Of a DNA stretch of 64,000 nucleotides, positions 10,764 to 62,273 are shown one piece after another. The stretch is from Candidatus Yonathbacteria bacterium (GTDB lineage: Bacteria; Patescibacteriota; Minisyncoccia; Phycocordibacterales; UBA1550), in NCBI GenBank assembly GCA_003483855.1, contig DMXP01000005.1, forward strand, positions 29,202-93,201, in the 5' to 3' direction. Below the pieces are notes generated by a model. That model was given only the letters and a program-made list of their open reading frames with translations. It was not told the DNA's origin and did no database searches. The translations under genes were made by a program, and so were the position numbers. Every line of letters begins with the position of its first letter. Position 1 is the stretch's first letter.

Positions 10764-10850
10764 GAGGGGGTAGAATATCGAATATTGAATGTCGAAGTTG
10801 GAATGGGCCCAACTCATTACATTCGTTCAATACTTAATACTATACACCAA

Positions 10851-16268: not shown

Positions 16269-16369
16269 TTGTTTACCCTACTTGAATACCATCAAAATCG
16301 CAACTCTAACAAACAATCAAGTTTTGCATTTCGCGCCCATTCCATGTTCTACATTCCAAATTCGACATT

Positions 16370-17398
16370 CTATCTTAGATACTTCCCCTTGTTTACCACA
16401 TGCTCATCAAATGTTTTTGCGTAATGCATCGCGCCTTCTTTATCTGAAAGATAATACATAAAAGATGTTGCCGTTGGACTAATAGCCGCGCGAATAGCAA
16501 CAATGCCTGGGTTTCCAATAGGACCAGCAGGGAGACCTTTGTTTGTATATGTATTGTACGCTGATTTTATTTTTAGATCTGCAGTTGTAAGCTCGCTTGA
16601 TTTCTTGCCCAGTAGATACATAAATGTTGCGTCTACTTGAAGAGGCATTCCTTTTGAAATACGATTCCAAAGCACGCCTGACACTAGAGCCATATCCTCG
16701 GGATTAGAGGCTTCTCGTTCAAGTATAGATGCCATAATAATTATATCGCGCAATGAATGCTTTGATGTTTCAATCGCGCCAGACCATGGCTCTATTTTTT
16801 TATTAAAATTGTTAATCATTATTTGTTCTGCTTCCAATGCTGTAACATTTTCAGGGAAAAAATATGTGTCGGGAAAAAGGTATCCTTCCTGCGGACGCGC
16901 ATGTTCTAGAAAAAACACAGTATCAAAATTTGAAATATTTTTTTCTAAAACTACTGCTACTTCCTTGTTAGACATTCCCTCCGGGATAGTTACGCGTACC
17001 GCAGGAATTCCTGAGATGCTTCGCGCAATGCGTATTGCAATACGACAGGCAGAAATCGGTTCTTTAAAAAGATACTGCCCTGCGGACACAGGCTTTGCGC
17101 CTCCGACGAGCTTCGCGCAAGATTCAAAAAGACTCTGTGAGCGGATAAGATTTTCTTTTTCAAGGAGTGCGGAAACTTCTGTAAGTGAAGCGCCCTTCTT
17201 TACTGTAATCATTTTATTTTCTGGAAAACTAAATGGGGGCATTACACGAAAGGAGATGTACGCTGAAAAAAGGACAATTATAATAACAATAACAATCAAA
17301 ACTTTTGCTCCTCGCTCTTCTATGCCGAGCGAAGACAGAAACCTTGAAAAACGTCCTGCTTCTTCTTGTGTTACTTTTTCTTCTGGTGTTTTGTCCAT
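16370..17398 (-). CDS. mltG: Endolytic transglycosylase
   Basis: EGYLFPDTY, ASILERE, LQVDAT, YNTY..GLPAGPI; start set at MDKTP. Confidence 0.95.
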   Translation of the reverse strand: MDKTPEEKVTQEEAGRFSRFLSSLGIEERGAKVLIVIVIIIVLFSAYISFRVMPPFSFPENKMITVKKGASLTEVSALLEKENLIRSQSLFESCAKLVGGAKPVSAGQYLFKEPISACRIAIRIARSISGIPAVRVTIPEGMSNKEVAVVLEKNISNFDTVFFLEHARPQEGYLFPDTYFFPENVTALEAEQIMINNFNKKIEPWSGAIETSKHSLRDIIIMASILEREASNPEDMALVSGVLWNRISKGMPLQVDATFMYLLGKKSSELTTADLKIKSAYNTYTNKGLPAGPIGNPGIVAIRAAISPTATSFMYYLSDKEGAMHYAKTFDEHVVNKGKYLR

Positions 17399-42415: not shown

Positions 42416-42751
42416 TTACTGGAGCTGATGCCCATCTGGACAGAAGAGAATGATCTGATCCACAAAATTATCGAGGTCTGTAGGATTGCTTCCATACTCA
42501 ACCATTTCTTCTATCACCTCATCTAGATACGCAATGGTGAATGGTAGGAGCTCAAAATTAAACTCAACCACAAACTTTTTTCTTGAGGTAGAAAAGTTTT
42601 TAAAAAAATCCTTCTCAAAAACTGGGACTCGTGTGCCTTTTGTTTTCTCCTCCTCAATTACCAACTGCATTAATACTGAAAGCCGGTCTGACTCATTTGG
42701 TAAAAAAGAAAGCGTGGTCTTGCCATCACTCGGGTTAAATCTGACGTCCAT
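42416..42751 (-). CDS. Hypothetical acidic protein
   Basis: 111-aa ORF with a perfect AAGGAGGTG SD and a downstream hairpin. Confidence 0.7.
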   Translation of the reverse strand: MDVRFNPSDGKTTLSFLPNESDRLSVLMQLVIEEEKTKGTRVPVFEKDFFKNFSTSRKKFVVEFNFELLPFTIAYLDEVIEEMVEYGSNPTDLDNFVDQIILFCPDGHQLQ

Positions 42752-42844
42752 ATCACACCTCCTTCATCTTCGCAAATTTAAGGAACAAAAAATGTGACCA
42801 GTGGCAACTACGTTTATTATAAAGCGATTAGAATATTTGAGCAA

Positions 42845-43239
42845 GGAGCCCGCCTCCGCCTTTCGATTCTCCTCGGAGTCACACAATAGCAAAAGATGTC
42901 CCGAGGCTCTCGGTCACGGGTTACTAATTAATTTTTGGATAGCCTCGTCGTGTACGACAGGTCTAAGACTAGCGTGTGGTCAACACGTAAGTAATTTTGC
43001 TAAATCAAAGTCACTAAGTCTACTCGTGTGTCGCGTTTCAATCGACACTACGCGACGCGATTTTGCAAAATCGACACTGCGTGGACGTAAGTGCTCGCGA
43101 CCCCAGAGTCCAAGATTAGGGCCAAGCCCCGAATTTGTTAATTCGAAATCTGCAGATTCGTCGTGGTTTTGCGTGCTCGCAAAACATCACTGCGCTTTCC
43201 ACAAACTAAAAACCTGCCGCAGGGCAGGTTTTTAGTTTG
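42845..43239 (-). mobile_element. tRNA-Ala-linked element (one full unit plus the start of a second)
   Basis: Core GGGGTCGCGAGCACTTA...TAGTAACCCGTGACCGAGAG; direct repeat CCTCGGG at 42900-42906; anti-tRNA copy at 42862-42876. Confidence 0.7.
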
Positions 43240-43313
43240 TGGACCCGAGGAGAATCGAACTCCTTACCTCCGGAGTGCAAAACCGGCGCTCTAGCCAGGT
43301 GAGCTACGGGCCC
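43240..43313 (-). tRNA. tRNA-Ala(TGC)
   Basis: Cloverleaf GGGCCCG...TTTGCAC...TTCGATT...CGGGTCC-A with a G3-U70 pair. Confidence 0.95.
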
Positions 43314-43356
43314 AGATATCAAAACACTACTTTAGCAAACTACCTAGATTTTTACA

Positions 43357-43424
43357 GCGCCGGTTTTGAAACCGGCGACTATTATTCCTCTCGGCAGAGC
43401 CTCGTGGCCAGGTGAGCTACGGGC
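43357..43424 (-). pseudogene. Disrupted duplicate of the tRNA-Ala 5' half
   Basis: 43407-43424 is identical to 43294-43311; AAACCGGCG is also repeated. Confidence 0.6.
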
Positions 43425-43533
43425 ACATTCACCACATTTAACAATTAACTTGTGACATGTGACAAATTCAAACCCATTTGTGCGGGTCAATTGTCAATTA
43501 TTCTTAGTTAAATGTTATCCCGTCTATAATACC

Positions 43534-44499
43534 TTATTTTTTCCTTAATGCAAGGGTGAGCACATAGTCAACAAATTCTGGAAGGGTGAGCCCACTCTGC
43601 GAGAGTGATTTCATGAGGAGCGATGTATCGGTAAGTCCGGGGAGTGTGTTTACTTCTAAAAGGTACGGCCCTTCTTCTGTCAAAATAAAATCGTATCTCG
43701 CATAATGTCGCGCGCCAAGGTGGGCGTGAGCGCGGAGTGCATCTTCCTCAAGGGCTCTGCGTTCAGCGTCGCTCATGCGCGCGGGTCCTACTGGATGCGT
43801 CAGATTCCTATATTTTTGATCATAGTCAAAAAGCTTCCCATCTGGTAAAAGAATCTCAAGAGCGGGAGTTGCGTATGAACCAACCCCTTCTGATGAATCT
43901 ACGACACCAACTGTAACCTCGCGCCCTCGCACGTACTCCTCAATCATTGCCTTCTCCGAGTATGCGAGAGCGCGCTCTATCGCGGACACAAGTTCGCGGT
44001 CTGTATGCGCGAGAGAGAGGCCTACTGACGAACCTCCCGAAAGTGGCTTCACCACATACGGCGCCTTTATCTCAGATCCGACACGCGCCACGACCTCGCT
44101 CACCTCCTCGCCTCTGGAAACAACGAGCCCACGTGGCACCTTGATGCCGACAGCAGAAAAGTATTTCTTCGCGAGATCTTTGTTCATACCAATAGCAGAA
44201 GGCATCGCTGTGGAACCAGTGTACGGAATATTAAAAAGCTCAAGAATTTTTTGCACTTTTCCGTCCTCACCAAACTCACCATGAAGAGCGTTGAAAACAA
44301 TATCAACGTGTTGAGCAAGTTTCGCCGGGCTCGTTGGTCTGCCGTCTATGTGCCACTCGCCAGCGTTTGTGATAAGTATATCGTGTGCTTCATATTTGTC
44401 CGAAGGAAGCGCTGAGAGCACGTTTCCACCAGTACGAAGAGAAACATGGTATTCGCTACCAAGCCCCCCGCGCATAACACCGACCCGAAGTTTGTTCAT
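43534..44499 (-). CDS. ddl: D-alanine--D-alanine ligase
   Basis: LHGEFGEDG, GGSSVG and LEVNTLPG; start set at MNKLR. Confidence 0.96.
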   Translation of the reverse strand: MNKLRVGVMRGGLGSEYHVSLRTGGNVLSALPSDKYEAHDILITNAGEWHIDGRPTSPAKLAQHVDIVFNALHGEFGEDGKVQKILELFNIPYTGSTAMPSAIGMNKDLAKKYFSAVGIKVPRGLVVSRGEEVSEVVARVGSEIKAPYVVKPLSGGSSVGLSLAHTDRELVSAIERALAYSEKAMIEEYVRGREVTVGVVDSSEGVGSYATPALEILLPDGKLFDYDQKYRNLTHPVGPARMSDAERRALEEDALRAHAHLGARHYARYDFILTEEGPYLLEVNTLPGLTDTSLLMKSLSQSGLTLPEFVDYVLTLALRKK

Positions 44500-44591
44500 A
44501 CAGACAGTATACAAGAGGTGTGTCACTTGCGAAAGTGCCACATTGATTTTAGTGCTGTTTCTGATAGTATGAGCAAGTATTTATATTGATT

Positions 44592-44672
44592 GCCGGAATG
44601 GTGGAATGGTATACACGTGCGACTCAAAATCGCATGCCGCAAGGCTTGTGGGTTCAAGTCCCACTTCCGGCA
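44592..44672 (+). tRNA. tRNA-Leu(CAA)
   Basis: Cloverleaf with a long variable arm; anticodon loop CTCAAAA. Confidence 0.96.
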
Positions 44673-44890
44673 CAAAGCGTAAAAAAACCTGCACTGCTGC
44701 AGGTTTTTAGCTTTGTGCGGGCGGAGTGATGTTCCGCGACCACGCGGAACCGCGAGCCGGGGGCGGCAAGTACTTACGGCTATGAGAGCGTATCCGCTTG
44801 AAGAGACTTAGTAACTTATGCTCACACAGACTCAGTCGGGCTTTGCCCGTCCTTACCTTTCCCTTCGTGACCGACCCTCTCTCGGCACAA
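44673..44890 (+). mobile_element. tRNA-Leu(CAA)-linked element (anti-tRNA arm largely lost)
   Basis: Hairpin, then GGGCGGAG...GCGAGCCGGGG...AGTACTTA...GACTTAGTAACT...TTCGTGACCG; direct repeat CGGCACAA at 44883-44890. Confidence 0.65.
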
Positions 44891-44961
44891 GCAAAGCGGG
44901 TGTGACCGAAGGTCGCACCCGCTTTTACTTAAATTGTCAGTTGTCAAATGTTCCTCCCAAT

Positions 44962-45582
44962 TTATATCTTCCCCACCAAGTCCAATCCCGGCTTCAATGT
45001 GTCATCACCTGGCTCCCAGCTTGCTGGACAGACATTGCCACCATGCTCACGAACAAATTTTGCCGCCTGCAGTTTACGTACGAGCTCCTTTGCGCTTCGC
45101 CCTACGCTGTTATCGTTTACTTCCACTATACGAAGAATACCATCTGGATCAACCACAAATGTTCCGCGAAGCGAAAGTCCTTCTTCGGGAATGTATGTGC
45201 CAAACATATGGCAAAGTTCACGACGAGTATCAGAAATCATTGGGAACTTTATTTTCTTGATAGCTTCCGAAGTGTCGTGCCACGCCTTATGAACAAAAAC
45301 AGTATCTGTTGAAACTGAAAGCACTTCCCCGCCAAGTTTTTGAATCTCCGCATAGTTGTCCGCCATCTCCTCAAGCTCTGTTGGGCAAACAAACGTAAAG
45401 TCAGCTGGATAGAAAAAGAGAATGAGCCACTTTCCGCGATAATCAGAAAGTTTAATCTTTTTTACTTCTTCATTGTGAAATGCTTCCACCAGAGCGTCTG
45501 GAATTTCGTGTCCTATTTCCGCAAACATTAGCATATCTACCGAACATCCTCCACAACACTCATTCATATCTTTATGTTTCAT
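44962..45582 (-). CDS. ahpC: Peroxiredoxin (2-Cys, AhpC type)
   Basis: FYPADFTFVCPTE and VCPASW motifs. Confidence 0.96.
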   Translation of the reverse strand: MKHKDMNECCGGCSVDMLMFAEIGHEIPDALVEAFHNEEVKKIKLSDYRGKWLILFFYPADFTFVCPTELEEMADNYAEIQKLGGEVLSVSTDTVFVHKAWHDTSEAIKKIKFPMISDTRRELCHMFGTYIPEEGLSLRGTFVVDPDGILRIVEVNDNSVGRSAKELVRKLQAAKFVREHGGNVCPASWEPGDDTLKPGLDLVGKI

Positions 45583-45625
45583 GGTAGTAATTTATTGTTT
45601 ATTGATATATAAGTAATATACCAAA

Positions 45626-46528
45626 ATGGCACCAAAACAGAAAGATAGGATAATCGCTGTTGTCGGTCCAACAGCCTCAGGCAAGAGCGCTCTTGCTGTA
45701 GAGATTGCTCGCCTTGTTAACGGCGAGATTATTTCGGCTGATTCACGACAGGTTTACACTGGGCTTGATATCGGCACAGGCAAGGTCACGAAACGAGAGA
45801 TGCTTGGTGTGCCCCACCACATGCTTGATGTCATAAATCCTAAACGAACAATGTCGGTCGTACAGTACGAACGCCTCGCCACACGAGAAATAGAAGATAT
45901 TTTGAAGAGAGGAATAACCCCCATCATTTGCGGAGGCACGGGGCAATACGTTGACGCAGTACTTACCACTGCTTCATTCCCTGAGGTTCCACCAAATGCA
46001 AAACTCAGGAAAAAATTGGAGAAACTTTCGGCTGAAAAACTTTTTAAAAAATTGCAGAAAATGGATCCTGCGCGGGCAAAAACAATTGATGCAAAAAATC
46101 CACGACGGCTCATTCGCGCAATTGAAATTGCAGAAGTGCTCGGTAGTGTGCCATCGCGCGAGCCTGCGACCGAGCGCTATGACACTCTTTACATAGGACT
46201 CGCGCTTCCAAAAGAAGAACTGTCAGAACGCATCCACAAGCGCCTCGTGGCACGTATGCGCCAAGGCATACTAGCCGAAGCGAAGCGTTTGCACGAGAAA
46301 GGTCTCTCCTGGAAGCGCATGAAGGCACTTGGACTTGAGTATCGCTTCCTTGCGCAATTTTTGCAAAATAAAATCTCAAAAGAGGAATTGCTTGATTTGC
46401 TTGAAATTGCAATTCGTCAGTACTCAAAACGCCAGATAGTTTGGTTTAAGAGGAATGAGAAGATTAAGTGGTTTGAGCCAAGTGAGTCTAAAAAGGTTTT
46501 GTCAGTTGTAGTAAAATTTTTGAAATAG
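45626..46528 (+). CDS. miaA: tRNA dimethylallyltransferase
   Basis: GPTASGKS, ISADSRQVY, GGTGQY and KRQ..WF motifs. Confidence 0.97.
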   Translation: MAPKQKDRIIAVVGPTASGKSALAVEIARLVNGEIISADSRQVYTGLDIGTGKVTKREMLGVPHHMLDVINPKRTMSVVQYERLATREIEDILKRGITPIICGGTGQYVDAVLTTASFPEVPPNAKLRKKLEKLSAEKLFKKLQKMDPARAKTIDAKNPRRLIRAIEIAEVLGSVPSREPATERYDTLYIGLALPKEELSERIHKRLVARMRQGILAEAKRLHEKGLSWKRMKALGLEYRFLAQFLQNKISKEELLDLLEIAIRQYSKRQIVWFKRNEKIKWFEPSESKKVLSVVVKFLK

Positions 46529-46530
46529 AA

Positions 46531-46785
46531 GCGGGCCCACGAGTCCGCGGTCCCGAGTTACTAAGTATTTTTCCACACTTCGTGTTCAAAAATCCTAAGT
46601 GTTCGCGACCACGCCTCGGCGACCCAGTGAGTACACTGTGTGCTCCCGATTTCTTAGGTTGTACTCAACCTCTTGAAATCGCAGTGCCCTAGATTTATCG
46701 TGGCCCCGCCTGCGGTTTTCGAGTCCTCGTGGGCCTAGCAGTAACAACAAACCCCAAACACTGTCGTGTTTGGGGTTTGTTACTG
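46531..46785 (-). mobile_element. tRNA-Trp-linked element
   Basis: 18-bp anti-tRNA copy at 46718-46735, conserved core, 13-bp direct repeat 46531-46543 = 46785-46797. Confidence 0.8.
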
Positions 46786-46856
46786 CGGGCCCACGAGGAC
46801 TCGAACCTCGGTCTGCGCGTTTGGAGTGCGATATTCTACCACTGAACTATAGGCCC
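46786..46856 (-). tRNA. tRNA-Trp(CCA)
   Basis: Cloverleaf, anticodon loop CTCCAAA; weak anticodon stem. Confidence 0.9.
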
Positions 46857-46931
46857 TATAGCTACTGCCTTACAAATCGGAGTATATCAAAATACTCATG
46901 AAAAGAAAAACCCGGCATTGCCGAGTTTTTT

Positions 46932-47090
46932 CTACTTCTTTGCTTCCTTGTGAGAAGTATGAGCGCGACAAGAATTGCAGTATTTGTCTAGCTCAATTTT
47001 ACGCTCAACAAGCTTCTTGTTCTTGCGAGTCCAATAGTTTATGCGCTTGCACTTCTTGCAGGCGAGTTTGATAAGTTGGTCTTGTGACAT
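46932..47090 (-). CDS. rpmG: 50S ribosomal protein L33 (Zn-binding form)
   Basis: MSQDQLIKLACKKCKRINYWTRKNKK...KYCNSCRAHTSHKE; below the ORF-track size cutoff. Confidence 0.95.
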   Translation of the reverse strand: MSQDQLIKLACKKCKRINYWTRKNKKLVERKIELDKYCNSCRAHTSHKEAKK

Positions 47091-47195
47091 AATTTTCCTA
47101 TCCTACTACACTCAGCACAAAAAGGCAAGAAAACTGCTATTTAAAAAAGACGGGTGATAATATCACCCGTCTTAACTATTTATTATCATTTACTA

Positions 47196-47840
47196 TCATG
47201 CGCATTTATCAGAATACGTATCGATGTTTGCGCAAGCAATCATCTTTGCATCATACCATGACGTGTAAAGATATCCTGCTTCAAAAGGTTTGGTTCCTTT
47301 TTCAAAACCGTTTATGAGCTCTTTCACCTGATCAATAGTTGATATTCCTTCCATTTGAATACCATGCGCATATGAAGAACTAAAGTAGTCCCTGAGCTCG
47401 TCGTTACATTCGTAAAGTATCGATTCGTCCTCCTCTATGAGTGGTGCGATAAGACCTGCCAAAAAATGTTCTGGGGCTTTTTTCTTTCCAAATATTTGCT
47501 CAGCGAGCGACGCGTACACTGATGCAAGAATGTAACAATCTATTGCATGATTCAATATCTTGCGCTCCTCGTGCAGTGGCGCATATTCAACACGATTAAT
47601 TTCATACTCAACCTTACTGAATCCAAGTATATTTATGATACCATGGACACTCGTAGGTCTTCTGAATGAACCGTGACATATACACATATGATTTGTCATG
47701 CGCAAGAGTCTCACAACAAGGTAAGGTTGAAAGACCAAAAGTTTTGCAATGTCTCCAAACGAAGAATCCTTGTTTGCAAGCAAGTTAGAGAATTTCTTGA
47801 TGAACCCTTGTGTCACATACACCTTTTCAAATTCTTCCAT
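47196..47840 (-). CDS. Divergent HDOD-domain protein
   Basis: QPYLVVRLLRMTN...SVHGIINILG...EHFLAGLI; GGAGGG SD before MEEF. Confidence 0.6.
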   Translation of the reverse strand: MEEFEKVYVTQGFIKKFSNLLANKDSSFGDIAKLLVFQPYLVVRLLRMTNHMCICHGSFRRPTSVHGIINILGFSKVEYEINRVEYAPLHEERKILNHAIDCYILASVYASLAEQIFGKKKAPEHFLAGLIAPLIEEDESILYECNDELRDYFSSSYAHGIQMEGISTIDQVKELINGFEKGTKPFEAGYLYTSWYDAKMIACANIDTYSDKCA

Positions 47841-48090
47841 TCTACCCTCCTGTGTATTATTTTGTGATGTAAATGTACTGGTGCACATAATATCATAAAA
47901 TATGGGATTATGTCAAATAGCAATTTTTTAGAATTAAAAATCTAGTAGAACCTTTAACGGATTCATAATTTTGTACACCTGTAAATTAGCAAATTTTAAT
48001 CTTGGCAAAAGGATTCTCTTTTTCGAATCCTTCCCAACACTACAAAAGCCAAAAGCCTCCAACTCTCTCGAGTTGAGGGCTAGGTTTTTG

Positions 48091-48173
48091 TGCGCCGGGA
48101 AAGATTCGAACTTTCGAAGACCGAAGTCAGGAGATTTACAGTCTCCCCTCGTTGACCACTTGAGTACCGACGC
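48091..48173 (-). tRNA. tRNA-Tyr(GTA)
   Basis: Cloverleaf with a variable arm; anticodon loop CTGTAAA. Confidence 0.95.
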
Positions 48174-48241
48174 ATTTTAACAAGCGCTTTTAAAGCGTTT
48201 GTTAACTCTATCACTTTTTTTCTCTCACTTCAACCTCATTT

Positions 48242-50932
48242 TTAAATGCTTGCTTTTGCTCTAACTCGCGTTTTTGTCGTCACTTGTTTTTTCTCCACAC
48301 GGATAGCAATCTCGTCTTTCTCCACAGAGACTAGCACGCGACCGCCTTTTAGCACTCCAGATGAAATCATAAGCGAAGCGACTGGTGTCAAAATCTTTGT
48401 CTGGATTAGTCTCTTGAGCGGGCGTGCGCCGTAGCGTGAGTCGTACCCTTTTTCGGCAAGATATGTCAGAACTTCGGGCATAACATTGAGAGCAATTTCT
48501 TTTTCTGCGAGTCGCTTCTTTATGATATCCACCTGGAGTCCGACAATACTCTTGATAACCTCTGGCGACAAAATATCAAAAATGATGATTTCGTCCAAGC
48601 GGTTCAAAAATTCTGGACGGAAGAAATCCTTAAGCGAGCCCATCACGCGCTCCTTTGCGTCGGAATAATCAGCACTGTCACTCGCATGCGCGCCGAAACC
48701 AATCGCCTGCATTTTATCAATGTATTCAGAACCAATGTTTGATGTCAAAATGATGACAGTGTTTTTGAAATTCACCACACGACCTTTTGAGTCTGTAAGG
48801 TGACCACTGTCAAGAACCTGAAGCAAGATGTTGAACACCTCTGGATGCGCTTTCTCAATTTCGTCAAAGAGTAACACAGAGTATGGGCGATGGCGCACTG
48901 TCTCAGTGAGGTTTCCACTCTCTTCGTGTCCCACATATCCAGGAGGTGAGCCGATTAATTTTGACACTGAGTGTTTCTCCATATACTCCGACATATCCAC
49001 TCGAACAAGCGCTTTGTCGTCGTTGAACATAAACTCAGCGAGTGCTTTAGAGAGCTCTGTCTTACCAACACCTGTTGGTCCAAGGAAAAGAAACGAGCCG
49101 ATTGGGCGGTTTGGATCGGCGATGCCCGCGCGCGTACGTTTGATTGCGTCTGAAACTTTTTGGATAGCGTCCCTTTGTCCTACAACACGCTTCTCAAGTT
49201 CTGCTTCTATGTGCGCAAGCTTTCCAGCTTCTTCCTCGAGCATCTTGGTCACCGGAATACCTGTCCAACGAGCAACAACTTCCGCGATATCTTGCTCTAC
49301 AACTTCTTCCTTCAAAATACGACGTGATGACTGAAGCTTTTTCAGACGCGCGACTTTAGAAACCAAATCTTTTTCAAATGATGGAATGCGTCCATAACGA
49401 ATCTCCGCCGCAAGAGCGAGGTCAGCTTTCATTTCAGCAGTTTCTGCCTCCAGGCGAGCAGTCTCCAGACTTTTCTTGATTGCGCGAATGTCTTGAACAA
49501 GCTCCTTTTCGTTTTTCCACTTAATCTCTATTTCCTTTGTCTTCTCGCGAAGGTCACCGATTTCCTTATCAATCTTTTTTGTGCGCGCTTTTGCATTTTT
49601 GCCGGCATCACCCTCAATAGTTGACTCCTTTTTAAGGGCCTCTTTTTCAATTTCAAGACGCATTATGCGACGATGTGCCTCCTCAAGAACAGGCGGTTTG
49701 TTTTCAAGCGAAATGCGAAGTGACGACGCAGCCTCGTCTATAAGGTCCACTGCTTTGTCTGGTAGAAAACGATCGGTGATGTAGCGACTTGAGAGATTTA
49801 CCGCAGCCATAATTGCGTCGTCTGTAATATGCACTCCGTGAAAGAGTTCGTATTTTTCTTTTAGTCCACGAAGAATAGCCACCGCGTCTTCAATGCTTGG
49901 CTCATTTACATGCACAGGCTGGAAACGACGAGTAAGCGCGGGATCTTTTTCAATATGCTTTTGGTACTCACGAAGGGTCGTTGCGCCGATAGCGCGAAGC
50001 TCCCCGCGAGCTAGAGCAGGCTTCAACATATTTGACGCGTCCATAGAACCCTCCGCGGCGCCAGCGCCTACTATAGTGTGAATCTCGTCTATAAAAAGAA
50101 TTATCTTCCCTTCCGAGCGCTCAATTTCTTTCATAATTTTCTTCAAACGATCCTCAAATTCACCGCGGTACTTTGTGCCTGCGATAAGCTGACCAAGGTC
50201 TAGAGAGACGAGCTCCTTGCCCTTCAGAGACTCTGGCACGTCACCCTTTGCCATGCGAATAGCGAGTCCTTCCACAACAGCAGTCTTGCCCACACCTGCC
50301 TCCCCAATAAGAATGGGATTGTTTTTTGTGCGACGAGAAAGAATTTGAATTATACGCCCGACTTCATTATCGCGACCAATCACTGGGTCAAGCTTGTCCT
50401 GACCAGCAAGCGCTGTGAGGTTCCTCGTGTATTTGTAAACTGACTTGAGTTTTTTTGATGGCGTGCTGTCTGTAATATTTTGTGTGCGAAATTCCTCTAG
50501 CACGCGCATTACACCTTCGCGGTCAATATTGTGACGTGACAAAAATTCGCGCGCTTGACCTTCTACGTCAAAAAGCGCGAGAAAAAGATGTTCACAGGAA
50601 ATCTGTTCGTCTTTCATTGCTTCTGCAAGGCGGGGCGCAACTTCTCCCAAAACTTGCCCAAGCTCAGGAGTAAGATACAGTTGATACGATGCCGAAGCGA
50701 CATTTTGCGAGGTTGTTGGTTCAATGAGATCAAGGATCGCTTCCGCAAACGCCATTGAGTCCACATCTAGACGATCTAGGATAGACACAACAATACTCTC
50801 GTCGTCGAGGACAAGGGAAGTCAATAGGTGCATTGGGCTCACATGGTTCTGCCCGCGCTCTACCGCAAGCTCGTGCGCGCGACGAATAATATCGCGAGCT
50901 TTTGTTGTGAAATTGTTAAATGGTGGCATCAT
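48242..50932 (-). CDS. clpB: ATP-dependent chaperone ClpB
   Basis: Two AAA+ modules ([16 protein letters not shown]) and a long middle coiled coil; start set at MMPPF. Confidence 0.95.
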
Positions 50933-51060
50933 TTGAATTGAATGTTGACGAATTAGCAAATTCGCGCCTGGCGCTATCGAATATTGAATGCTAGATATTA
51001 AGAGTAATGTACAATAGCTGTTCTCCCCTGTCAAACTTCGCCGTAAAAATGCTGAACCCA

Positions 51061-51903
51061 CTATATAATCTTCTCAGGATCAGCAAGGGCTGTTTTCGTG
51101 GCTTCATTAATGAGCCTTTTTGCTTCTGTCACAGGTACTCCATACTGAGAACCAGTGCTTTCATCAATATTCAAAAAACCAATAATTTCGCCGTTCAAAT
51201 TAATGATAGGCGCGCCGTTTGATGTGCCGGCAAAGCGCATGGAGATTGCGATATTGTCCAAAATCTTCGTTTCAACTTTTGTTTCCTTGTCAACAACAGC
51301 GCGCGTATCAAGGCTTGTGATAATTCCAGTTGAAATCGTTTTTCCGTCACGACCGGCGATGACAAGTGAAGTTTGCCCAAGTTTTAGTGTGTCGGGATTC
51401 CCAAACGCGACAGTGTTAAACTTTGGTGTTGATGTTGCTGACACTGGCACAAGGCGACCAAGACCTAACGAGTTTGCCTTATTGTTTGAAATAACTTCAA
51501 GAGTGTATTGGATTCCATTGATTGTCGTATAGAGTACACCAAGTCCAAGATTCCAACGAGCTGTTATCACAAGTCCATCAGGAGACACAATCGTTCCCAC
51601 CCCTGCAGAAAGAACACCTCCATCACCAATCTCCGCCTTAAAAGGAATAATGTTATTTATGTTTTTATCGATAGCCACCACGAGTAGGTCTTCATCTTTA
51701 ACCACAACAGTTGCACCCGGCTTATCTACAAAAGTAGGAGTAATCTTTTCTATCGTGCGCTCAACCACGTTGGTTATCGTTTGATTTACTGGGTCAGGCG
51801 CCTGATCCATAAGTGTAACTACAACGATTCCTGTTGCCATTGATGCAACAAAACTAACGAAAAGTGTGAGTAAAACTATTTGCGCTTTTGTGAGATGCTC
51901 CAT
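51061..51903 (-). CDS. Trypsin-like (HtrA-type) protease homolog with a degenerate active site
   Basis: GVGTIVSPDGLVIT(ARW), GTSNGAPIINLNGEIIG; N-terminal TM helix. Confidence 0.75.
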   Translation of the reverse strand: MEHLTKAQIVLLTLFVSFVASMATGIVVVTLMDQAPDPVNQTITNVVERTIEKITPTFVDKPGATVVVKDEDLLVVAIDKNINNIIPFKAEIGDGGVLSAGVGTIVSPDGLVITARWNLGLGVLYTTINGIQYTLEVISNNKANSLGLGRLVPVSATSTPKFNTVAFGNPDTLKLGQTSLVIAGRDGKTISTGIITSLDTRAVVDKETKVETKILDNIAISMRFAGTSNGAPIINLNGEIIGFLNIDESTGSQYGVPVTEAKRLINEATKTALADPEKII

Positions 51904-52023
51904 AGGGTTGAATATTGAATGTTGAATTAGCGTCCAAGACGTGAATTTGTTAATTCAAGAATGTAGAACAAATGCGGATACAAATACTCTCAATTCTTTA
52001 TTATTGTAATTGTACAGCCTTGT

Positions 52024-52599
52024 CTATTTTACTGCAAGAAATCGCTCAGATGCAACGCTCCAGTCAATCGCATTCCAAAACGCAGAGATGTAGTCCGCGC
52101 GTTTGATGCCATAGTCTAGAGCAAATGCGTGTTCAAATACATCCATCACCAAAATGATTGTCGTTCCAGCGAGATGCCCGCCGTCGTGTTCATTTATCCA
52201 CACATTAAAAAGTTTTCCCGTTTCCACATCGCGCGCAAGCACAGCCCAGCCAATACCACGCATAGCGCCAATTGCGCGAAAATCTTTTTCCCAGTTTTCC
52301 ACTGAACCAAAATCCTCTTCAAGTTTTTTCGCAAGCAAGGACTTTATATCCAAATCACTTCCGCCCTTAGTCATATTCCCAAAATATAATTCGTGCAGAC
52401 GCATTCCGTTCCACTCCCATCCGAAACGACGCTTTAGCTCGCTGTACGGCGGTGTTCCAACATCTGCGGGCTTTAGAAACTCGTGAATTTTATTGGTATT
52501 AGAAACATATCCCTCGTAGAGCGTGAAATGGTTACGTAGAAGCACATCCGAAAATCCATCGGTTCCCAAAAGTCGTTCAAAATTTTTTGCTTCGTACAT
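52024..52599 (-). CDS. Fe/Mn superoxide dismutase family protein
   Basis: HFTLY, LHELYF and DVFEHA motifs. Confidence 0.92.
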   Translation of the reverse strand: MYEAKNFERLLGTDGFSDVLLRNHFTLYEGYVSNTNKIHEFLKPADVGTPPYSELKRRFGWEWNGMRLHELYFGNMTKGGSDLDIKSLLAKKLEEDFGSVENWEKDFRAIGAMRGIGWAVLARDVETGKLFNVWINEHDGGHLAGTTIILVMDVFEHAFALDYGIKRADYISAFWNAIDWSVASERFLAVK

Positions 52600-52625
52600 A
52601 ATAATTTAGTCTAAAGTTATTAAGG

Positions 52626-53810
52626 TTAAATTAAATCGCTCTGCGCTTGCGATTCACGGAGGAATGGTACGAGACGAATGATTTCATTCGCCACGTGCGC
52701 AATATCCTCATTTTTTGTTTCCCTTCCGAGTGAAAAGCGGATTGAGCCTGATTCACCTTCATTTGCTTCGCCTATCGCCATTATAACATGAGACGGTCCA
52801 CCATCTGAACTCTTGCAAGCACTCTTCCCAGACACCGCAACCCCAGAAGCATCAAGGTAAAGCACGAGCGCTTCACTATCCACTCCGTCAAACGAAATGT
52901 TCAAAATATTTGGCAAACTGTGTTCAAGAGAGCCGTTCACACTTGTGCCTGAAACTTTCTTAAGAATCTTCGTAGCGAGCGCGTCGCGAAGGATAACCAC
53001 GCGCTTCCCTTCTTTCGCGCTCATTTTTTGCGCCTCCTGTAGGGCCTCTGCGAACCCTCTAGCAAGGGCAACGGCTTCCGTGCCTGGACGACGACCGCCT
53101 TCATGTTCACCGCCGTACATTTGCGAAAGCAAATTAACTCCGCGTTTTACAAATAGCGCGCCGATACCGCGTGGGCCGTATGTCTTGCCAGAAGAAATGG
53201 TCATCAAGTCTACACCAAGGCGTAGCACGTTGATGTCCAAGTAGTTCCCTGCTTGCGCGGCGTCTGTATGAAAATATGGGTACGCGCTTCCGTTCATTTT
53301 CCTTGCATGGCGAATTTCTTTTGCAACATCAATAATCGGCTCAATCGTTCCGATTTCATTATTCGCATACATTATAGACACAAGAGCAGTTTCAGGAGTG
53401 ATAAGTTTCCGCAGCTCTCTCGTGTCCACCAGCCCGCGACTATCAACAGGGAGATAATCCACCTGAATCCCAGCAGATTCAAATGCTCTCGCAAGTCCAA
53501 TAACCGATGCGTGCTCAATAGCAGATACAATGATACGTGGTTTCGCAATTCCACAAGCGCGCACCACACCGCTTATCGCCAAATTGTTCGCCTCGGTCGC
53601 GCTACTCGTGAAAACAATCTCATCTGGACGCGCGGACAAACATTCAGCAATTCCGGCACGAGCCGTCTCGAGGACGGCTCGTGCCGACCTGCCCTCCTTA
53701 TGAATCCCACTCGGGTTCCCTGGAAACTTTTTTGTCGCTTCAACAACCGCGCGCAAAGCCGTGGCACTCACCGGCATCGCCGAAGCATAATCCATGTAGA
53801 TTCTTTTCAT
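52626..53810 (-). CDS. iscS: Cysteine desulfurase (IscS/NifS type)
   Basis: YMDYAS, NNEIG, HTDAAQ, KTYGPRG and SAC motifs. Confidence 0.93.
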   Translation of the reverse strand: MKRIYMDYASAMPVSATALRAVVEATKKFPGNPSGIHKEGRSARAVLETARAGIAECLSARPDEIVFTSSATEANNLAISGVVRACGIAKPRIIVSAIEHASVIGLARAFESAGIQVDYLPVDSRGLVDTRELRKLITPETALVSIMYANNEIGTIEPIIDVAKEIRHARKMNGSAYPYFHTDAAQAGNYLDINVLRLGVDLMTISSGKTYGPRGIGALFVKRGVNLLSQMYGGEHEGGRRPGTEAVALARGFAEALQEAQKMSAKEGKRVVILRDALATKILKKVSGTSVNGSLEHSLPNILNISFDGVDSEALVLYLDASGVAVSGKSACKSSDGGPSHVIMAIGEANEGESGSIRFSLGRETKNEDIAHVANEIIRLVPFLRESQAQSDLI

Positions 53811-53923
53811 CCCGACATCATATCCCGCGAGTCAATTGTTTTCAATAGTTGAACCCAACCTTGGTCTTTCTGGCGAGGCGGTCTTCCTATTTACCAGCAA
53901 TGCAAAATAAGCATTGGGTTCCC

Positions 53924-54084
53924 CTCCTTGGCGAGGAATGTCTCTTGTGCGGGGACTTGCGAAAGCGACGGCTTGAGCACGAGGACGATTTAGCAAAATC
54001 GCACCTTGGGCTTTTCTAAAATAAATATCCGTACCTCATTCACCAGAATGACCTACGGGCAAGTCCACAAGACGACATCCGAGC
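53924..54084. mobile_element. MITE-like family C, copy 2
   Basis: Colinear with 35070-35229 (CACGAGGACGATTTAG.AAAATCGC, AAATATCCGTACC, CACAAGACG). Confidence 0.7.
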
Positions 54085-54121
54085 AGTTTTTGCAAAAATC
54101 CTTAAAATGTGGTACATTTTC

Positions 54122-54281
54122 GGAACCTCCTCTCTAAAATAGTGCTGAGATGAAAGGTTTTAATTTCGTAGCGAGAATTTCAAGACGCGAAGAGGTGAAG
54201 CGAGCTTCATTGATGAGTGCCTTGAAATTTGTAGTAGAAATTTAAGCCTTATCAGCCAGCAATATTTTAGAGGGCGGTTCC
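54122..54281 (+). repeat. 160-bp imperfect hairpin forming the 5' leader of the DUF4446-infB unit
   Basis: GGAACC..CTCTAAAATA / TATTTTAGAG..GGTTCC; TTGCAA-17-TACATT promoter immediately upstream. Confidence 0.65.
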
Positions 54282-54285
54282 TAAT

Positions 54286-54753
54286 ATGACACCAGAAGCT
54301 CTACAAATAACCGTTATCGTATTGAGCGTTATCATGATAGCGCTCTCTGCATTGGTTTTTGTATTAGAGCGTCGTATGAAAAAGCTACTCGCGGGGAAAG
54401 ACGCATTGAGTCTTGAGGAAACAATTGTAGCCCTGGGCAAAGACATTCGCGCTCTGGAAAAGTTTCAGTCAGATACGGAGAACTACATTACTGATTCAAA
54501 CAGACGCATCAAGCGAAGCATTCAAGGTGTTGAGACAATTCGTTTCAACGCTTTCAAAGGCAACGGTGAAGGAGGAAACCAAAGTTTCGCAATCGCGCTC
54601 CTGTCTGAAAATGGCGATGGAACGGTAATCTCCTCCCTCTTCGCTCGCGACCGAATGAGCATCTTTGCAAAGCCCATCAAAAACTTCACTTCCGAACTTG
54701 AAATGACAGACGAAGAAAAGGACGCGGTCAAACGCGCGACACCGAATCAGTAG
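54286..54753 (+). CDS. DUF4446 family protein
   Basis: N-terminal TM helix; RFNAF...GGNQSFAIALL...G.VISSL..R...FAKPI. Confidence 0.8.
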   Translation: MTPEALQITVIVLSVIMIALSALVFVLERRMKKLLAGKDALSLEETIVALGKDIRALEKFQSDTENYITDSNRRIKRSIQGVETIRFNAFKGNGEGGNQSFAIALLSENGDGTVISSLFARDRMSIFAKPIKNFTSELEMTDEEKDAVKRATPNQ

Positions 54754-54819
54754 ATTCGCGTCTTGGACGTAAAATTAATAAGTTCCTCATACGTTCGCGT
54801 TTGTATTTTCATTTTTTTT

Positions 54820-56355
54820 ATGACAAAAAATTCCACATCAAAAATAATTCCACGTCCGCCCATTGTTGTTATCATGGGGCATATTGACCATGGAAAGTCA
54901 TCGCTCCTTGACTACGTCCGCAAGACAAACGTTGTTGAGGGAGAAGCTGGTGGCATTACTCAGCACATTTCTGCATACGAGGTGTCACACCATCTTGACC
55001 AAACGCGAAAAGATGCGCTCGCGAGCAACCGCATCACTTTTCTAGATACTCCGGGGCACGAAGCTTTTTCAAAAATGCGCGCTCGTGGCGCAGGGGTAGC
55101 GGACATTGCTATTCTTGTAGTCTCAGCAGAAGACGGTGTGAAGGAGCAAACAAAAGAGGCGCTTCGTTCTATTAAAGAGGCCGGCATCCCGTACATTGTC
55201 GCCATCAATAAAATAGACAAGCCAAACGCAAACATTGAGCGCACAAAACAAAATCTCGCTGAGAACGAAATCTATCTTGAGGGATTCGGCGGTGACGTGC
55301 CATTCGTACCAATCTCTGCAAAGCTCGGCACCGGTGTGCCAGACCTTTTGGATATGATGCTTCTTGTTGCAGAAATGGAGAACCTTACAGGCGACACATC
55401 GCTTCCAGCAGAAGGAATTGTGGTGGAGTCAAACATTGATACAAAACGTGGCACATCCGCAACTCTCATCATTACAAATGGCACACTCAAAAAAGGAATG
55501 TTCATTCTCGCAGAGGAAAGCATGTCCCCTGTGCGCGTGATTGAAAACTTTCTAGGCAAGCAAGTTTCCGAAGCAACATTCTCATCCCCTGTTCAGATTA
55601 CCGGCTTTGACGCTCTCCCTGCTGTAGGAAGCACTTTCCGCGCGTACGCAAACAAAAAAGATGCTGAGAAGGTTCAGCTTGAACTCAGGGAAGCAAAGAG
55701 CAAGGAAAAAGTGAAGGAGATTGTGCGGACAATCCCGCTCGCAGACGACGCGCTTGTCGTGCCTATTGTTTTGAAATCAGACGTCGCAGGTACCCTTGAA
55801 GCGATTGAAAAAGAACTTGCTAAAATTGAGCGCGAGCGTGTTGTAATAAAAATCATCGCGAAGGGTGTCGGCACTATCGGTGAAAACGACGCGAAGCTCG
55901 CTTCTGGTTCAGACAGCGCCATCATCATTGGCTTCCACACAAAGGTAGAGCGTGGCGCACAAGATATTGCGGAGCGCTTTGGCATCACTATCAAAACTTT
56001 TGATATCATCTACAAACTTTCAGAGTGGTTAAACGAGGAGCTAGATCGTCGCACACCTAAAGTTATGGGCGAGGAAGTTGTTGGTATGGCAAAAATTCTC
56101 AAAACATTCAGCGCCACAAAGCACAAGCAGGTTATTGGTGGAAAGGTAACTTCAGGCACGCTTGAAGTTGGCGCGCAGGTAAAGATTATGCGTCGCGATG
56201 TTGAAATCGGTCGCGGAAAAATTGAAGGTCTCCAAGCGCAAAAACTTCCAGCGAAAAAAGTTGAGGAAGGAAACGAGTGCGGAATGATGATAGACGGAAA
56301 AATTGAAATTGCCGGCGGTGACGTGCTTGAAGCTTTTGTGATGAACGCCAAATAA
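54820..56355 (+). CDS. infB: Translation initiation factor IF-2 (short form)
   Basis: [26 protein letters not shown] and NKID motifs; start set at MTKNS. Confidence 0.97.
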
Positions 56356-56364
56356 AGGCCACTC

Positions 56365-56459
56365 GCTAAATTCTTTTTAGGGTACGACTTTTTTGAAGCT
56401 TAAAAAAATCTGAAGTTTTCGCGCCGTCGCGCTCAAAACCCCCTAAAAAGCAATTTAGC
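56365..56459. repeat. Intergenic long inverted repeat
   Basis: GCTAAATTCTTTTTAGGG / CCCTAAAAAGCAATTTAGC. Confidence 0.55.
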
Positions 56460-56526
56460 TCGCTCTGAGTTAGGGGAGCCGACTTAAATTACGAATTGTG
56501 GTAGTATAAAAAATAATAAGAAAATC

Positions 56527-56853
56527 ATGACCACTCCAAGACAAGACAAAATGCGCGCATTCCTACGCGCCATCGCCGCAGACTTTTTCACTCGTGAAGC
56601 TGGAAAAAACTCGCTCATCACAGTGACAGATGCGACCATCTCCCCCGACTTCAAACGTGGGACAATTTACTTTACCTGCTTCCCCACAAGCGAGGAAGAG
56701 AAGGCTCTTGATTTCGCAAAACGAAAGCGCACCGAACTCCGTGAATACATCAAAGATCATGCGCATTTAAAAAATCTTCCAGTGCTTGAAGTAAAGATAG
56801 ATGAAGGCGAACGAAACCGCCAGAGAATTGACGAGTTGGGACAACAAGGCTAA
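56527..56853 (+). CDS. rbfA: Ribosome-binding factor A
   Basis: ITVTD..ISPD...P.L....D; follows infB. Confidence 0.9.
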   Translation: MTTPRQDKMRAFLRAIAADFFTREAGKNSLITVTDATISPDFKRGTIYFTCFPTSEEEKALDFAKRKRTELREYIKDHAHLKNLPVLEVKIDEGERNRQRIDELGQQG

Positions 56854-56894
56854 GATAGGCAGGTGCTTAGGTTTAAGATCCACAAATAGGGAAC

Positions 56895-57047
56895 ATGGCA
56901 ATAAAACCAAAGTGTGATAAATGTAAAGAAGAACTCAAAGATTTTGGTGGCATTTTATTAAGTCCGCCTGACAAAAAAGATATGGTTAGGAAATTTCATT
57001 TGTGCCAAAAGTGTTACAAAGAAATCTCAAATGAGTTAAAAAATTAA
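56895..57047 (+). CDS. 50-aa zinc-finger-like protein
   Basis: MAIKPKCDKC...LSPP...HLCQKCY; not in the ORF track. Confidence 0.7.
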   Translation: MAIKPKCDKCKEELKDFGGILLSPPDKKDMVRKFHLCQKCYKEISNELKN

Positions 57048-57080
57048 GGTTTACGTCCAAGACGTGAATCAGCTGATTCA

Positions 57081-57152
57081 GGCGTGGTAGCCAAGTGGTA
57101 AGGCAGTGGTTTGCAAAACCTCTACACGCGAGTTCGATTCTCGCCCACGCCT
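57081..57152 (+). tRNA. tRNA-Cys(GCA)
   Basis: Cloverleaf, anticodon loop TTGCAAA, U73. Confidence 0.95.
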
Positions 57153-57403
57153 CAAAGAAAATTCTGTTAAGAATTTTCTTGGCGTGGGAGCAGGTAAACT
57201 GCTTTGCCTGCGTCGGGTCCTAAATTTCGCACAACTTTGTTGTGCGAAATCTTACGACATGATTTTTGAAGCGCAAAAATCAGAATCGAAGGGCGGAGCA
57301 TGTCGCTTGCGACAGCGAGCCGGGGTCGCGAACACTTTGTAGTTTTCAAGCGAAGCGAAGAAAAATACTTAGTGATTCGTGACCGAGAGCGCCCACGCCT
57401 CAA
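57153..57403 (+). mobile_element. tRNA-Cys-linked element
   Basis: Split anti-tRNA copy (GGCGTGGG at 57181, AGAATCGAA at ~57282), core, 14-bp direct repeat 57390-57403 = 57142-57155. Confidence 0.75.
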
Positions 57404-57418
57404 GAAACAATTAAATAC

Positions 57419-57499
57419 GTCCGGGTGGTGGAATGGTATACACAGGAGACTTAAAATTTCCCGCCGTAAGGCTTATGGGTTCGAGTCCCATCCCGGACA
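57419..57499 (+). tRNA. tRNA-Leu(TAA)
   Basis: Cloverleaf, anticodon loop CTTAAAA. Confidence 0.95.
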
Positions 57500-57721
57500 C
57501 AAAATTAACAAGCGGAAAGCGATAGCTTTTTGCGACTGTAATTTTGTAGTCCGGGATGGGACTCGAAAGCCGGAGGCGGGCACCTTGTGTAATCACAAGG
57601 TCGCTGAGGCGGGGTCGCGAGTACTTAGGAGCGAAGCGACTTAGTAACTCGGGCCAAGCTTAGGGCCAAGCCCCGAATTTGTTAATTCGAAATCTGCTGA
57701 TTCGTGACCGCGGACCATCCC
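57500..57721 (+). mobile_element. tRNA-Leu(TAA)-linked element
   Basis: 19-bp perfect anti-tRNA copy at 57549-57567, core, direct repeat CCATCCC at 57715-57721. Confidence 0.8.
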
Positions 57722-57807
57722 TGTATTACCAAACAAGATTTGCCGAGCAAGCTAGTCCAATTGTAACAAACAAAAACACCCATAAGGGGTGTCTATGTTT
57801 ATATTTG

Positions 57808-57890
57808 TGCCGAGGAGAGGACTTGAACCTCCATGGGTTAACCCCGCTTGCTCCTAAGGCAAGTGCGTCTACCAATTTCGCCACCTCGGC
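57808..57890 (-). tRNA. tRNA-Leu(TAG)
   Basis: Cloverleaf, anticodon loop CTTAGGA. Confidence 0.95.
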
Positions 57891-57901
57891 ACTTCGCCCT
57901 G

Positions 57902-57974
57902 TGCACCCAGTAGGATTCGAACCTACGACCGTCTCGTTAAGAGCGAGCTGCTCTACCAACTGAGCTATGGGTGC
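57902..57974 (-). tRNA. tRNA-Lys(CTT)
   Basis: Cloverleaf, anticodon loop CTCTTAA. Confidence 0.93.
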
Positions 57975-58028
57975 ATGTAGAAAGCATTATACACAAAAAC
58001 TGGAAAATTAAAAGACGTTTTTGTTTTG

Positions 58029-58113
58029 TGCTGGAGGGCGGGACTTGAACCCGCATAAGCTTACGCTCGTAGCGTTCTGAACACTATGTGTATACCAATT
58101 TCACCACTCCAGC
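58029..58113 (-). tRNA. tRNA-Leu(CAG)
   Basis: Cloverleaf, anticodon loop TTCAGAA. Confidence 0.94.
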
Positions 58114-58270
58114 AAAATTTTATCTTTTTGAATATCCCAAATTTTACCATATTTCCCAAGCCTTCCACGTCGTACGTGCGGGCTTGACTTTTTCATCAAA
58201 ATCCTATATAATATAAAAAGGTTACAGATCTTTGATAATTGCAAATTAAACTTACTTATAGGAGGTTCAA

Positions 58271-62179: not shown

Positions 62180-62210
62180 ATTTAGTTCGCTAATTATTCT
62201 ATCGCATTAC

Positions 62211-62266
62211 ATTCTACATTCGACATTCTACATTCTACATTCTACATTCTACATTCAATATTCTAC
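62211..62266. repeat. Heptamer tandem repeat (ATTCTAC)x8
   Basis: Eight units, two of them variant (ATTCGAC, ATTCAAT). Confidence 0.9.
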
Positions 62267-62273
62267 CCTACCA

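Follow-up and report, generated by a model that had tools for sequence, protein, structure and literature searches.

The closest described counterparts of the elements analyzed here are the tRNA-linked repeats (TLRs) of Escherichia coli. In that organism, 22 TLRs occur at ten loci and are defined by an 18–19-bp direct copy of the end of the upstream gene (PMC8144298). For the TLRs, repeats known since 1978, PMC8144298 refers to Egan and Landy (1978) and Rudd (1999); it assigns them no known function and suggests that RNase E reads the repeat. The TLRs, including RtT, and the units of the present study are alike in that they are gene-less, lie right behind tRNA genes, end with a direct copy of the tRNA tail, and often stand in tandem.

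Integrase islands at tRNA genes, bounded by attL and attR, and the integrase-less remnants of such islands carry a direct repeat of the block from the T-loop to the 3' end and leave the tRNA restored. Unlike these islands, the units described here have neither integrase nor cargo, include a target-matched inverted copy, and share their cores across nearly all tRNA types. The attP of CTX phage is a folded single-stranded attachment site. Both integron attC sites (PMC4792948, PMC5027507) and CTX-phage attP resemble the units in their direct/inverted/direct topology, in extrahelical features on one arm, and in tandem accretion. Integron cassettes differ from the units, which use tRNA tails as targets, have target-specific arms, carry no cargo genes, and occur with a Xer-like recombinase only.

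Here, we describe such units in a 64,000-nt stretch of contig DMXP01000005.1 of a Candidatus Yonathbacteria bacterium, hereafter the window. The host genome (labeled G000) comprises 726 kb in 8 contigs; other labels denote relatives (G), their contigs (C), and individual loci (L).

Structure of the Trp Unit

In tRNA sense, the order of elements behind tRNA-Trp is hairpin, inverted copy, folded core, and direct copy of the tail. The parts are as follows:

46785..46856, minus strand: tRNA-Trp(CCA), the target gene (T54 at 46805, C56 at 46803; ARAGORN, Rfam)
46738..46784, minus strand: terminator-like spacer hairpin, 47 nt, absent at the empty site of relative G020
46718..46735, minus strand: exact 18-nt inverted copy of tRNA positions 54-71
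46611..46717, minus strand: left part of the core, with short stem P3 and a GA-rich internal loop
46549..46610, minus strand: long core hairpin P4, with a bulged A, compensatory pairs, and a GAA triloop
46531..46549, minus strand: direct copy of the tRNA tail from C56, 16/19 identical, last 13 exact (46531-46543)

The left part of the core carries a palindromic insertion (approximately 46643-46704), which is also present in G044 and in the Asn unit of G000. The direct copy abuts the 3' end of miaA (45626-46528, plus strand). For the RNA fold of the region, z was -10.4, and none of 100 shuffles folded equally well. The design is not an assembly artifact, because the independent assemblies of relatives carry it as well.

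Other Units in the Window

Besides Trp, four further units of this kind, 150–350 nt long and gene-less, lie within the window, together with a truncated second Ala unit and a partial structure behind tRNA-Tyr. Some of them have the left junction of a second (tail) class, which joins at a C in the tRNA tail and leaves direct repeats of only 3–6 nt.

57154..57403, plus strand: Cys unit, behind tRNA-Cys (57081-57153)
57154-57180, 57189-57213, and 57216-57281, plus strand: spacer, conserved small hairpin, and secondary insertion of the Cys unit
57181-57188 and 57282-57290, plus strand: split inverted copy of the Cys unit
57291-57384 and 57390-57403, plus strand: core and 14-nt direct copy of the Cys unit
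57501..57721, plus strand: Leu-TAA unit, behind its tRNA (57419-57500), with the spacer at 57501-57548
57549-57567, plus strand: 19-nt inverted copy of the Leu-TAA unit
57568-57709, plus strand: core of the Leu-TAA unit, with a REP-like insertion at about 57655-57703
57715-57721, plus strand: 7-nt direct copy of the Leu-TAA unit
44674..44890, plus strand: Leu-CAA unit, behind its tRNA (44592-44673), with a tail-class left junction and the inverted copy at 44710-44719
up to 44872 and 44883-44890, plus strand: degenerate core and 8-nt direct copy of the Leu-CAA unit
42900..43238, minus strand: Ala unit 1, behind its tRNA (43239-43313), with a spacer and a tail-class left junction (to 43198)
42900-42906, minus strand: 7-nt direct copy of Ala unit 1, whose core contains two secondary insertions
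42849..42899, minus strand: truncated Ala unit 2, in which a 15-nt inverted copy (42862-42876) is followed by the beginning of a core
48022..48089, minus strand: trailer of tRNA-Tyr (48090-48173), with a spacer hairpin and an imperfect inverted copy (about 48022-48040)

A first-pass annotation of this DNA had listed the copies behind Trp, Leu-TAA, Cys, Leu-CAA, and Ala, and all of its coordinates and lengths were reproduced on re-measurement. The layout that it assigned to these five tRNAs was present at all of them, but it had missed the inverted copy behind tRNA-Tyr, where neither core A nor a direct copy was found. At Leu-CAA and Ala unit 1, where it had described the inverted copy as mostly eroded, the shortness of this copy is not mere erosion but corresponds to the tail-class left junction. 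The Cys unit of relative G017 (L003) lacks the secondary insertion.

The segment 44873-44890, at the direct copy behind Leu-CAA, is closer to the tail of another Leu-CAA allele (as in L058) than to the present tRNA, which suggests from sequence comparison that the tRNA gene at this site may have been replaced after insertion.

A separate family of REP-like palindromes was also recorded in the window (15842-15873, 43119-43145, 51931-51957, 54738-54769, 57054-57080, and 57663-57689), with two copies inserted into the Ala and Leu-TAA cores; repeats similar to these palindromes flank one RAYT-like gene (L218). Short dispersed arrays of a 7-nt tandem repeat lie at 62208-62270, 16336-16377, 10748-10805, and 51903-51927.

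Target Tracking and Position of the Junction

The proposal that the inverted segment follows the identity of the adjacent tRNA was borne out. The inverted copy fitted its own tRNA best in 31 of 61 distinct units, and in 28 of the 33 clear cases, i.e., those scoring 10 or more; the direct copy did so in 37 of the 61. Across the whole of G000, the inverted copy was best for its own gene in 12 of 38 tRNA/tmRNA trailers and among the top two in 3 more. Metagenome units retrieved by means of the conserved small hairpin followed a tRNA in 94 of 119 cases, and the core-proximal segment of the arm had at most one mismatch to its tRNA in 86 of these 94, a test in which 5 of the 10–12 nt were preset by the search pattern.

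The first-pass annotation had also noted a common register of the direct repeat at Trp and Leu-TAA. A fixed start was confirmed; its position was corrected to C56 of the T-loop, with local mismatches in the window copies. Among the 37 related units whose repeat is at least 7 nt long, 35 have a direct copy that begins at this base; in several relatives, the direct copy reaches the full 18-nt alignment score. The inverted copy stops two bases before this start. For the register test, a 7-mer of the arm was placed first and the bases that follow were then examined; 68 of 102 units could be placed, the remainder having no recognizable core start (11) or no unique placement (23). The next two bases complemented the target in 57 of 58 T-loop units and in 8 of 10 others, which comprised five different dinucleotides. 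The third base did not complement the target in any of the 58 T-loop units or in 9 of the 10 others, and the first base after the junction was C in 67 of the 68 placed units. Since the TT dinucleotide of the T-loop is invariant, tracking of the two bases is tested only by the approximately 10 non-T-loop units, which are related to each other.

The arm is not continuous in all units. Of 166 units, 60 have a conserved small hairpin that breaks it at positions 65-67, and 11 have one additional base at positions 72-73. Where placement was possible, the hairpin coincided with the acceptor/T-stem boundary (46 of 49 units), and it lies 11–12 nt from the core even in tail-class units. Thus, an arm that is interrupted by a hairpin and still tracks its tRNA indicates that target-matched segments are embedded in a conserved scaffold.

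Distribution, Turnover, and Exchange of Cores

The right-end motif of core A was detected in 28 of 29 genomes of the genus and in 3 of 151 genomes of the class. A shorter core motif occurred in 95 of 121 genomes of the order, where a reversed control matched 14, so some single matches may be due to chance; these counts rest on exact motifs and underestimate divergent cores. Records with the motif carry Patescibacteria or Paceibacteria labels. In G000, each of the 10 matches to the right-end motif of core A has a tRNA or tmRNA no more than 700 nt away.

The prediction that cores occur mostly beside tRNAs also held. Among 84 matches in 80 genome loci, a count that leaves out 43 short loci of the same scan, 63 lay within 400 nt behind a called tRNA or tmRNA. 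The other matches, inspected by eye, were mostly located behind cut tRNAs, at the ends of recombinase islands, behind other units, and at one protein-gene end, and one was due to chance. In another sample, 19 of 21 stood behind a tRNA or tmRNA. Targets other than tRNA are tmRNA and the end of a gene that we take to be rpsI (L056).

Comparison of the Trp loci within the genus (22 in all, one of which had no tRNA call and was set aside) showed, by eye, a unit at 15 of 21, the hairpin only at 1, and neither at 5. An empty orthologous site, which the first-pass annotation had proposed to look for, was found in G020: the locus is syntenic, and the 46 nt from the tRNA to the end of miaA contain no hairpin and no unit. 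The flank in G008 is the same as in G000, with a different spacer, and the Trp loci of G011, G023, and G043 contain tandem units. At least four unrelated cores occur behind this same tRNA, and one spacer is combined with several cores; in G000, at least four unrelated cores were distinguished by eye. This variation is what accretion of pre-formed cassettes predicts, although the direction of change is not given for any single pair of genomes.

Four patterns searched against viral contigs matched 0, 13, 0, and 0 loci, and all 13 had no tRNA or core context. A blastn search against phages and plasmids gave no match.

At two convergent tRNA pairs of G000 (C4:44769-45471 and C8:73493-73869), units stand back to back with one central hairpin in common. 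Of the 24 runs of N in the G000 scaffolds, 20 were found by eye at the center of perfect palindromes, 4 of these in tRNA spacer hairpins; another gap splits a tRNA-like sequence (C8:85929).

Folding of the Units

Pairs of the P4 stem covary, with 76 of 77 being Watson-Crick. When tandem GA pairs were allowed, GNA triloops numbered 24 on the tRNA-sense strand and 0 on the other strand in 81 cores, which are related to each other; with strict stems, the counts were 10 and 0 in 80 such cores, against a shuffle mean of 2.2. When all 38 G000 trailers were pooled, there was no strand bias (5 versus 5). GNRA or UUCG loops were absent from the tRNA-sense strand of the 81 cores. The DNA fold of the Trp unit is better on the tRNA-sense strand (-50.3 versus -39.9 kcal/mol). 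According to PMC13037366, mini-hairpins of the GNA type are far more stable in DNA than in RNA, a comparison made for RNA in the tetraloop form, and such mini-hairpins are found at single-strand origins.

Comparison With TLRs and One-Strand Elements

The first-pass annotation had left open whether the element was already described. Its layout is, since it matches that of the E. coli TLRs; its sequence is not among the Rfam RtT repeats. The RtT model RF00391 gave no match at E up to 10 in window positions 42500-58200 and none at E up to 5 in four related loci, with the E. coli copies scoring 133–138 bits. The 18–19-bp tail copy that defines the TLRs is only loosely matched here: the Trp unit has 16/19 from C56. 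The units share the TLR layout and not the RtT sequence, and TLRs are a known, unexplained class.

In E. coli DNA covering 3 of the 10 TLR loci, we found inverted copies at tyrT and tyrV (19/22) and in four lys units (9/10). At lysQ, the inverted copy was 13/13 and the terminator was duplicated, and no inverted copy was found at the 5S-linked rrB. GNA triloops in the TLRs numbered 12 on the sense strand versus 1 on the other, in repeats that are not independent. The junction differs: it lies at T55|C56 or in the tail in the units described here and at A58/A59 in the TLRs. Unlike TLRs, the units also have several core families and a conserved hairpin within the arm. The terms "inverted," "mobile," and "palindrom" had no match in the main text of PMC8144298, although its supplement may bear on this. 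A literature search, with most subscription papers outside its scope, returned TLRs only in PMC8144298 and no account of the inverted copy or of units in Patescibacteria.

IS608 recognizes its target through pairing with the bases 5' of the cut and has a preference for C at +1 (PMC5934647). The units may resemble IS608 and REP/RAYT systems, as presented in PMC5934647 and PMC6006769, in having one-strand hairpin substrates, 5' target bases read at the 5' foot of a hairpin, and C at +1. The sequence pattern fits pairing with the 5' target of the IS200/IS605 type, with two bases only and without a constant tetranucleotide guide. In engineered IS608, the extended pairing lies upstream of the cut, whereas in the units it lies downstream, 3' of the junction. 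Unlike IS200/IS605 and REP/RAYT elements, the units leave a direct repeat and show no co-occurrence with Y1 transposases. Taken together, they fail to qualify as Y1 elements, integrons, or integrase islands; genes of retrons and IS110 were not encountered in G000.

Search for the Mobilizing Enzyme

In agreement with the first-pass annotation, no integrase or transposase was found among the 26 window proteins scanned against Pfam, and the description of a non-autonomous element with a target-matched segment is supported. Copies containing an ORF, which that annotation had suggested seeking, were not found: of 94 units, 47 had their direct copy within 300 nt and none had it farther away, while no direct copy was found for the other 47. 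No circle or excision junction was present among the joints listed for contigs of 4 runs. Within 700 nt of 181 units, no recurrent mobile gene was detected, except for a small ORF at 4; this 90-aa ORF (L104 and three other loci), presumably GIY-YIG-like, lies just upstream of four different tRNA types. Clustering of the genes neighboring these 181 units recovered chiefly syntenic housekeeping genes. A 137-aa ORF directly after tRNA-Thr(TGT) (G000:C1:23302-23715) is possibly PD-(D/E)XK nuclease-like.

G000 encodes one Xer-like recombinase (PF00589), three Y1 proteins, and two large serine recombinases, with no match to reverse transcriptase (PF00078) or IS110 recombinase (PF02371). A Y1 transposase is not supported as the enzyme: Y1 genes are equally common in genomes of the order that have a core motif (56 of 95) and in those that lack one (15 of 26), and the Y1 profile is uninformative. 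No core was found in the flanks of Y1 and tyrosine-recombinase genes, and the Y1 genes have flanking palindromes of their own. In a single case (L213, G010:C3), the next element after a cassette-like core behind tRNA-Gln is a RAYT-like Y1 gene, which has inverted ends of its own. A tyrosine recombinase occurs in 28 of 29 genus genomes, mostly as one copy, and, being nearly universal, cannot discriminate. Serine recombinases occur in 23 of the 29 but are missing from carriers such as G004, an 89% complete genome with 14 core motifs and no serine-recombinase match. A retroviral-style primer-binding-site model was discarded because G000 has no reverse transcriptase and tail-class units lack the 18-nt copy.

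A serine-recombinase island at tRNA-Gly(CCC) was observed outside the window (G000:C6:209-2215 and C1:1-6300), in which a perfect inverted repeat of 115 bp encloses the recombinase gene and an inverted repeat of 242 bp encloses the cargo.

Proposed Mechanism and Alternative Explanations

We propose, at roughly even chances, that the units are small non-autonomous integrative cassettes of the TLR type that move as folded single-stranded DNA, with the inverted arm pairing with the target. From the anatomy, target tracking, fixed register, empty site, tandem arrays, and swapping of cores, we infer the following steps. One unit would consist of the tRNA-tail copy, the terminator-like hairpin, the inverted copy, and the core. 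Its tRNA-sense strand would leave as a single-stranded circle and form a folded junction: the inverted arm would be paired with the tail copy of the same unit, and two bases would remain free beside the core. The arm, presumably acting as a guide, would then pair with the exposed non-template strand of a gene that matches it, and this pairing would extend to the two target bases that precede the cut. A single strand transfer at NN|C would insert the unit and restore the tRNA, the old tail moving downstream as the direct repeat, and replication would fix the inserted unit. Cores would be exchanged between arms, and arms for new targets would arise rarely, by fold-back copying. The register fits a reaction of the IS608 type, in which the two paired bases are followed by a free 3' end, and the topology fits folded single-strand attachment sites that replication resolves (PMC4792948).

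The enzyme would act in trans. Tentatively, it may be a protein outside PF01797 that uses HUH-like chemistry, or else a host topoisomerase; the one Xer-like recombinase that is conserved is a somewhat less likely candidate, host repair or recombination without a dedicated enzyme seems unlikely, and a large serine recombinase very unlikely.

Several features could also arise if only the core were mobile and both arms were made on the spot, which we consider rather unlikely. A nick beside the terminator would prime fold-back synthesis through the tRNA tail, the core would be joined, and synthesis would restart at C56, the outcome being an inverted triplication around the core. Such a process would account for the two extra bases that track variable target bases, for direct repeats that continue through a second copy of the spacer hairpin (2 of 61 units, L049 and L076, and E. 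coli lysQ), and for targets other than tRNA, namely tmRNA and the protein-gene end. However, fold-back copying at every insertion, which the first-pass annotation had considered, fits poorly because the conserved hairpin sits within the inverted copy 11–12 nt from the core, in tail-class units as well, and because one module of hairpin and inverted copy joins different cores among genomes; a single spacer module is likewise common to several genomes with different cores, and the empty Trp site offers no hairpin from which synthesis could start. Both models are compatible: fold-back copying may found new arms, which then spread as cassettes.

It is less probable still that the units are cis-acting RNA modules. 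On this view, read-through transcription would produce an RNA whose inverted and direct copies pair as an acceptor/T helix resembling that of a tRNA, and this helix would either tune processing or give rise to a small RNA, like RtT and RrB in E. coli. The stems covary, the inserted hairpin keeps to the acceptor/T-stem boundary, and E. coli TLRs are transcribed and processed (PMC8144298). Against this, a terminator-like hairpin precedes the inverted copy, the 81 cores are devoid of GNRA and UUCG loops, and TLRs are reported in PMC8144298 without known function, the rRNA-linked ones having only modest phenotypes. Many tRNAs have no unit and close relatives differ, and a required tRNA-processing signal, one of the readings of the first-pass annotation, fits this patchy presence poorly. 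Descent from the tRNA-targeting large-serine-recombinase islands of these bacteria, with the units as shrunken relics, is highly improbable. The islands do share a topology of tail, inverted lobe, inverted tail, second lobe, and tail; among 31 recombinase loci of the genus, the gene is enclosed by a long inverted repeat in 9, of which 7 are beside a called tRNA, and a hairpin of 210 nt is all that is left of the cargo lobe at L279. However, in the cases seen, the islands use no junction other than the tRNA tail, their inverted copy does not extend beyond the shared 4–7 bases, and their arms resembled no core in a homology screen of two G000 loci. In addition, the L279 island lies between the tRNA and an intact cassette, and G004 combines its core motifs with the lack of a recombinase match. 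The serine-recombinase island family looks separate from the cassettes.

A wider version of the cassette proposal is conceivable, though we lean against it: the units may be DNA-guided, self-targeting single-strand elements with interchangeable protein-binding scaffolds, in which one or two target-matched segments direct insertion at NN|C. Their targets would be the tails of tRNA, tmRNA, and ribosomal-protein genes, the enzyme would be a host or an unrecognized one, and the E. coli TLRs would be resident copies.

Significance

This work adds a junction register of two bases with C at +1, DNA mini-hairpins biased toward one strand, inverted copies in the TLRs of E. coli, and a profile that was negative for Y1. 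These results link a widespread repeat of ultra-small bacteria to the E. coli TLRs, whose origin has been open for decades, and yield a testable rule: the inverted arm overlaps the junction by two bases, C stands at +1, and folding occurs on one strand. Should the units do no more than accrete, tRNA tails are still hotspots of turnover, at which att-site callers and assemblers can be misled. If the arm is a guide, lysQ and tyrT of E. coli would give access to it in the laboratory, and these bacteria would harbor a naturally evolved, programmable single-strand DNA insertion of the kind that has been engineered into IS608.
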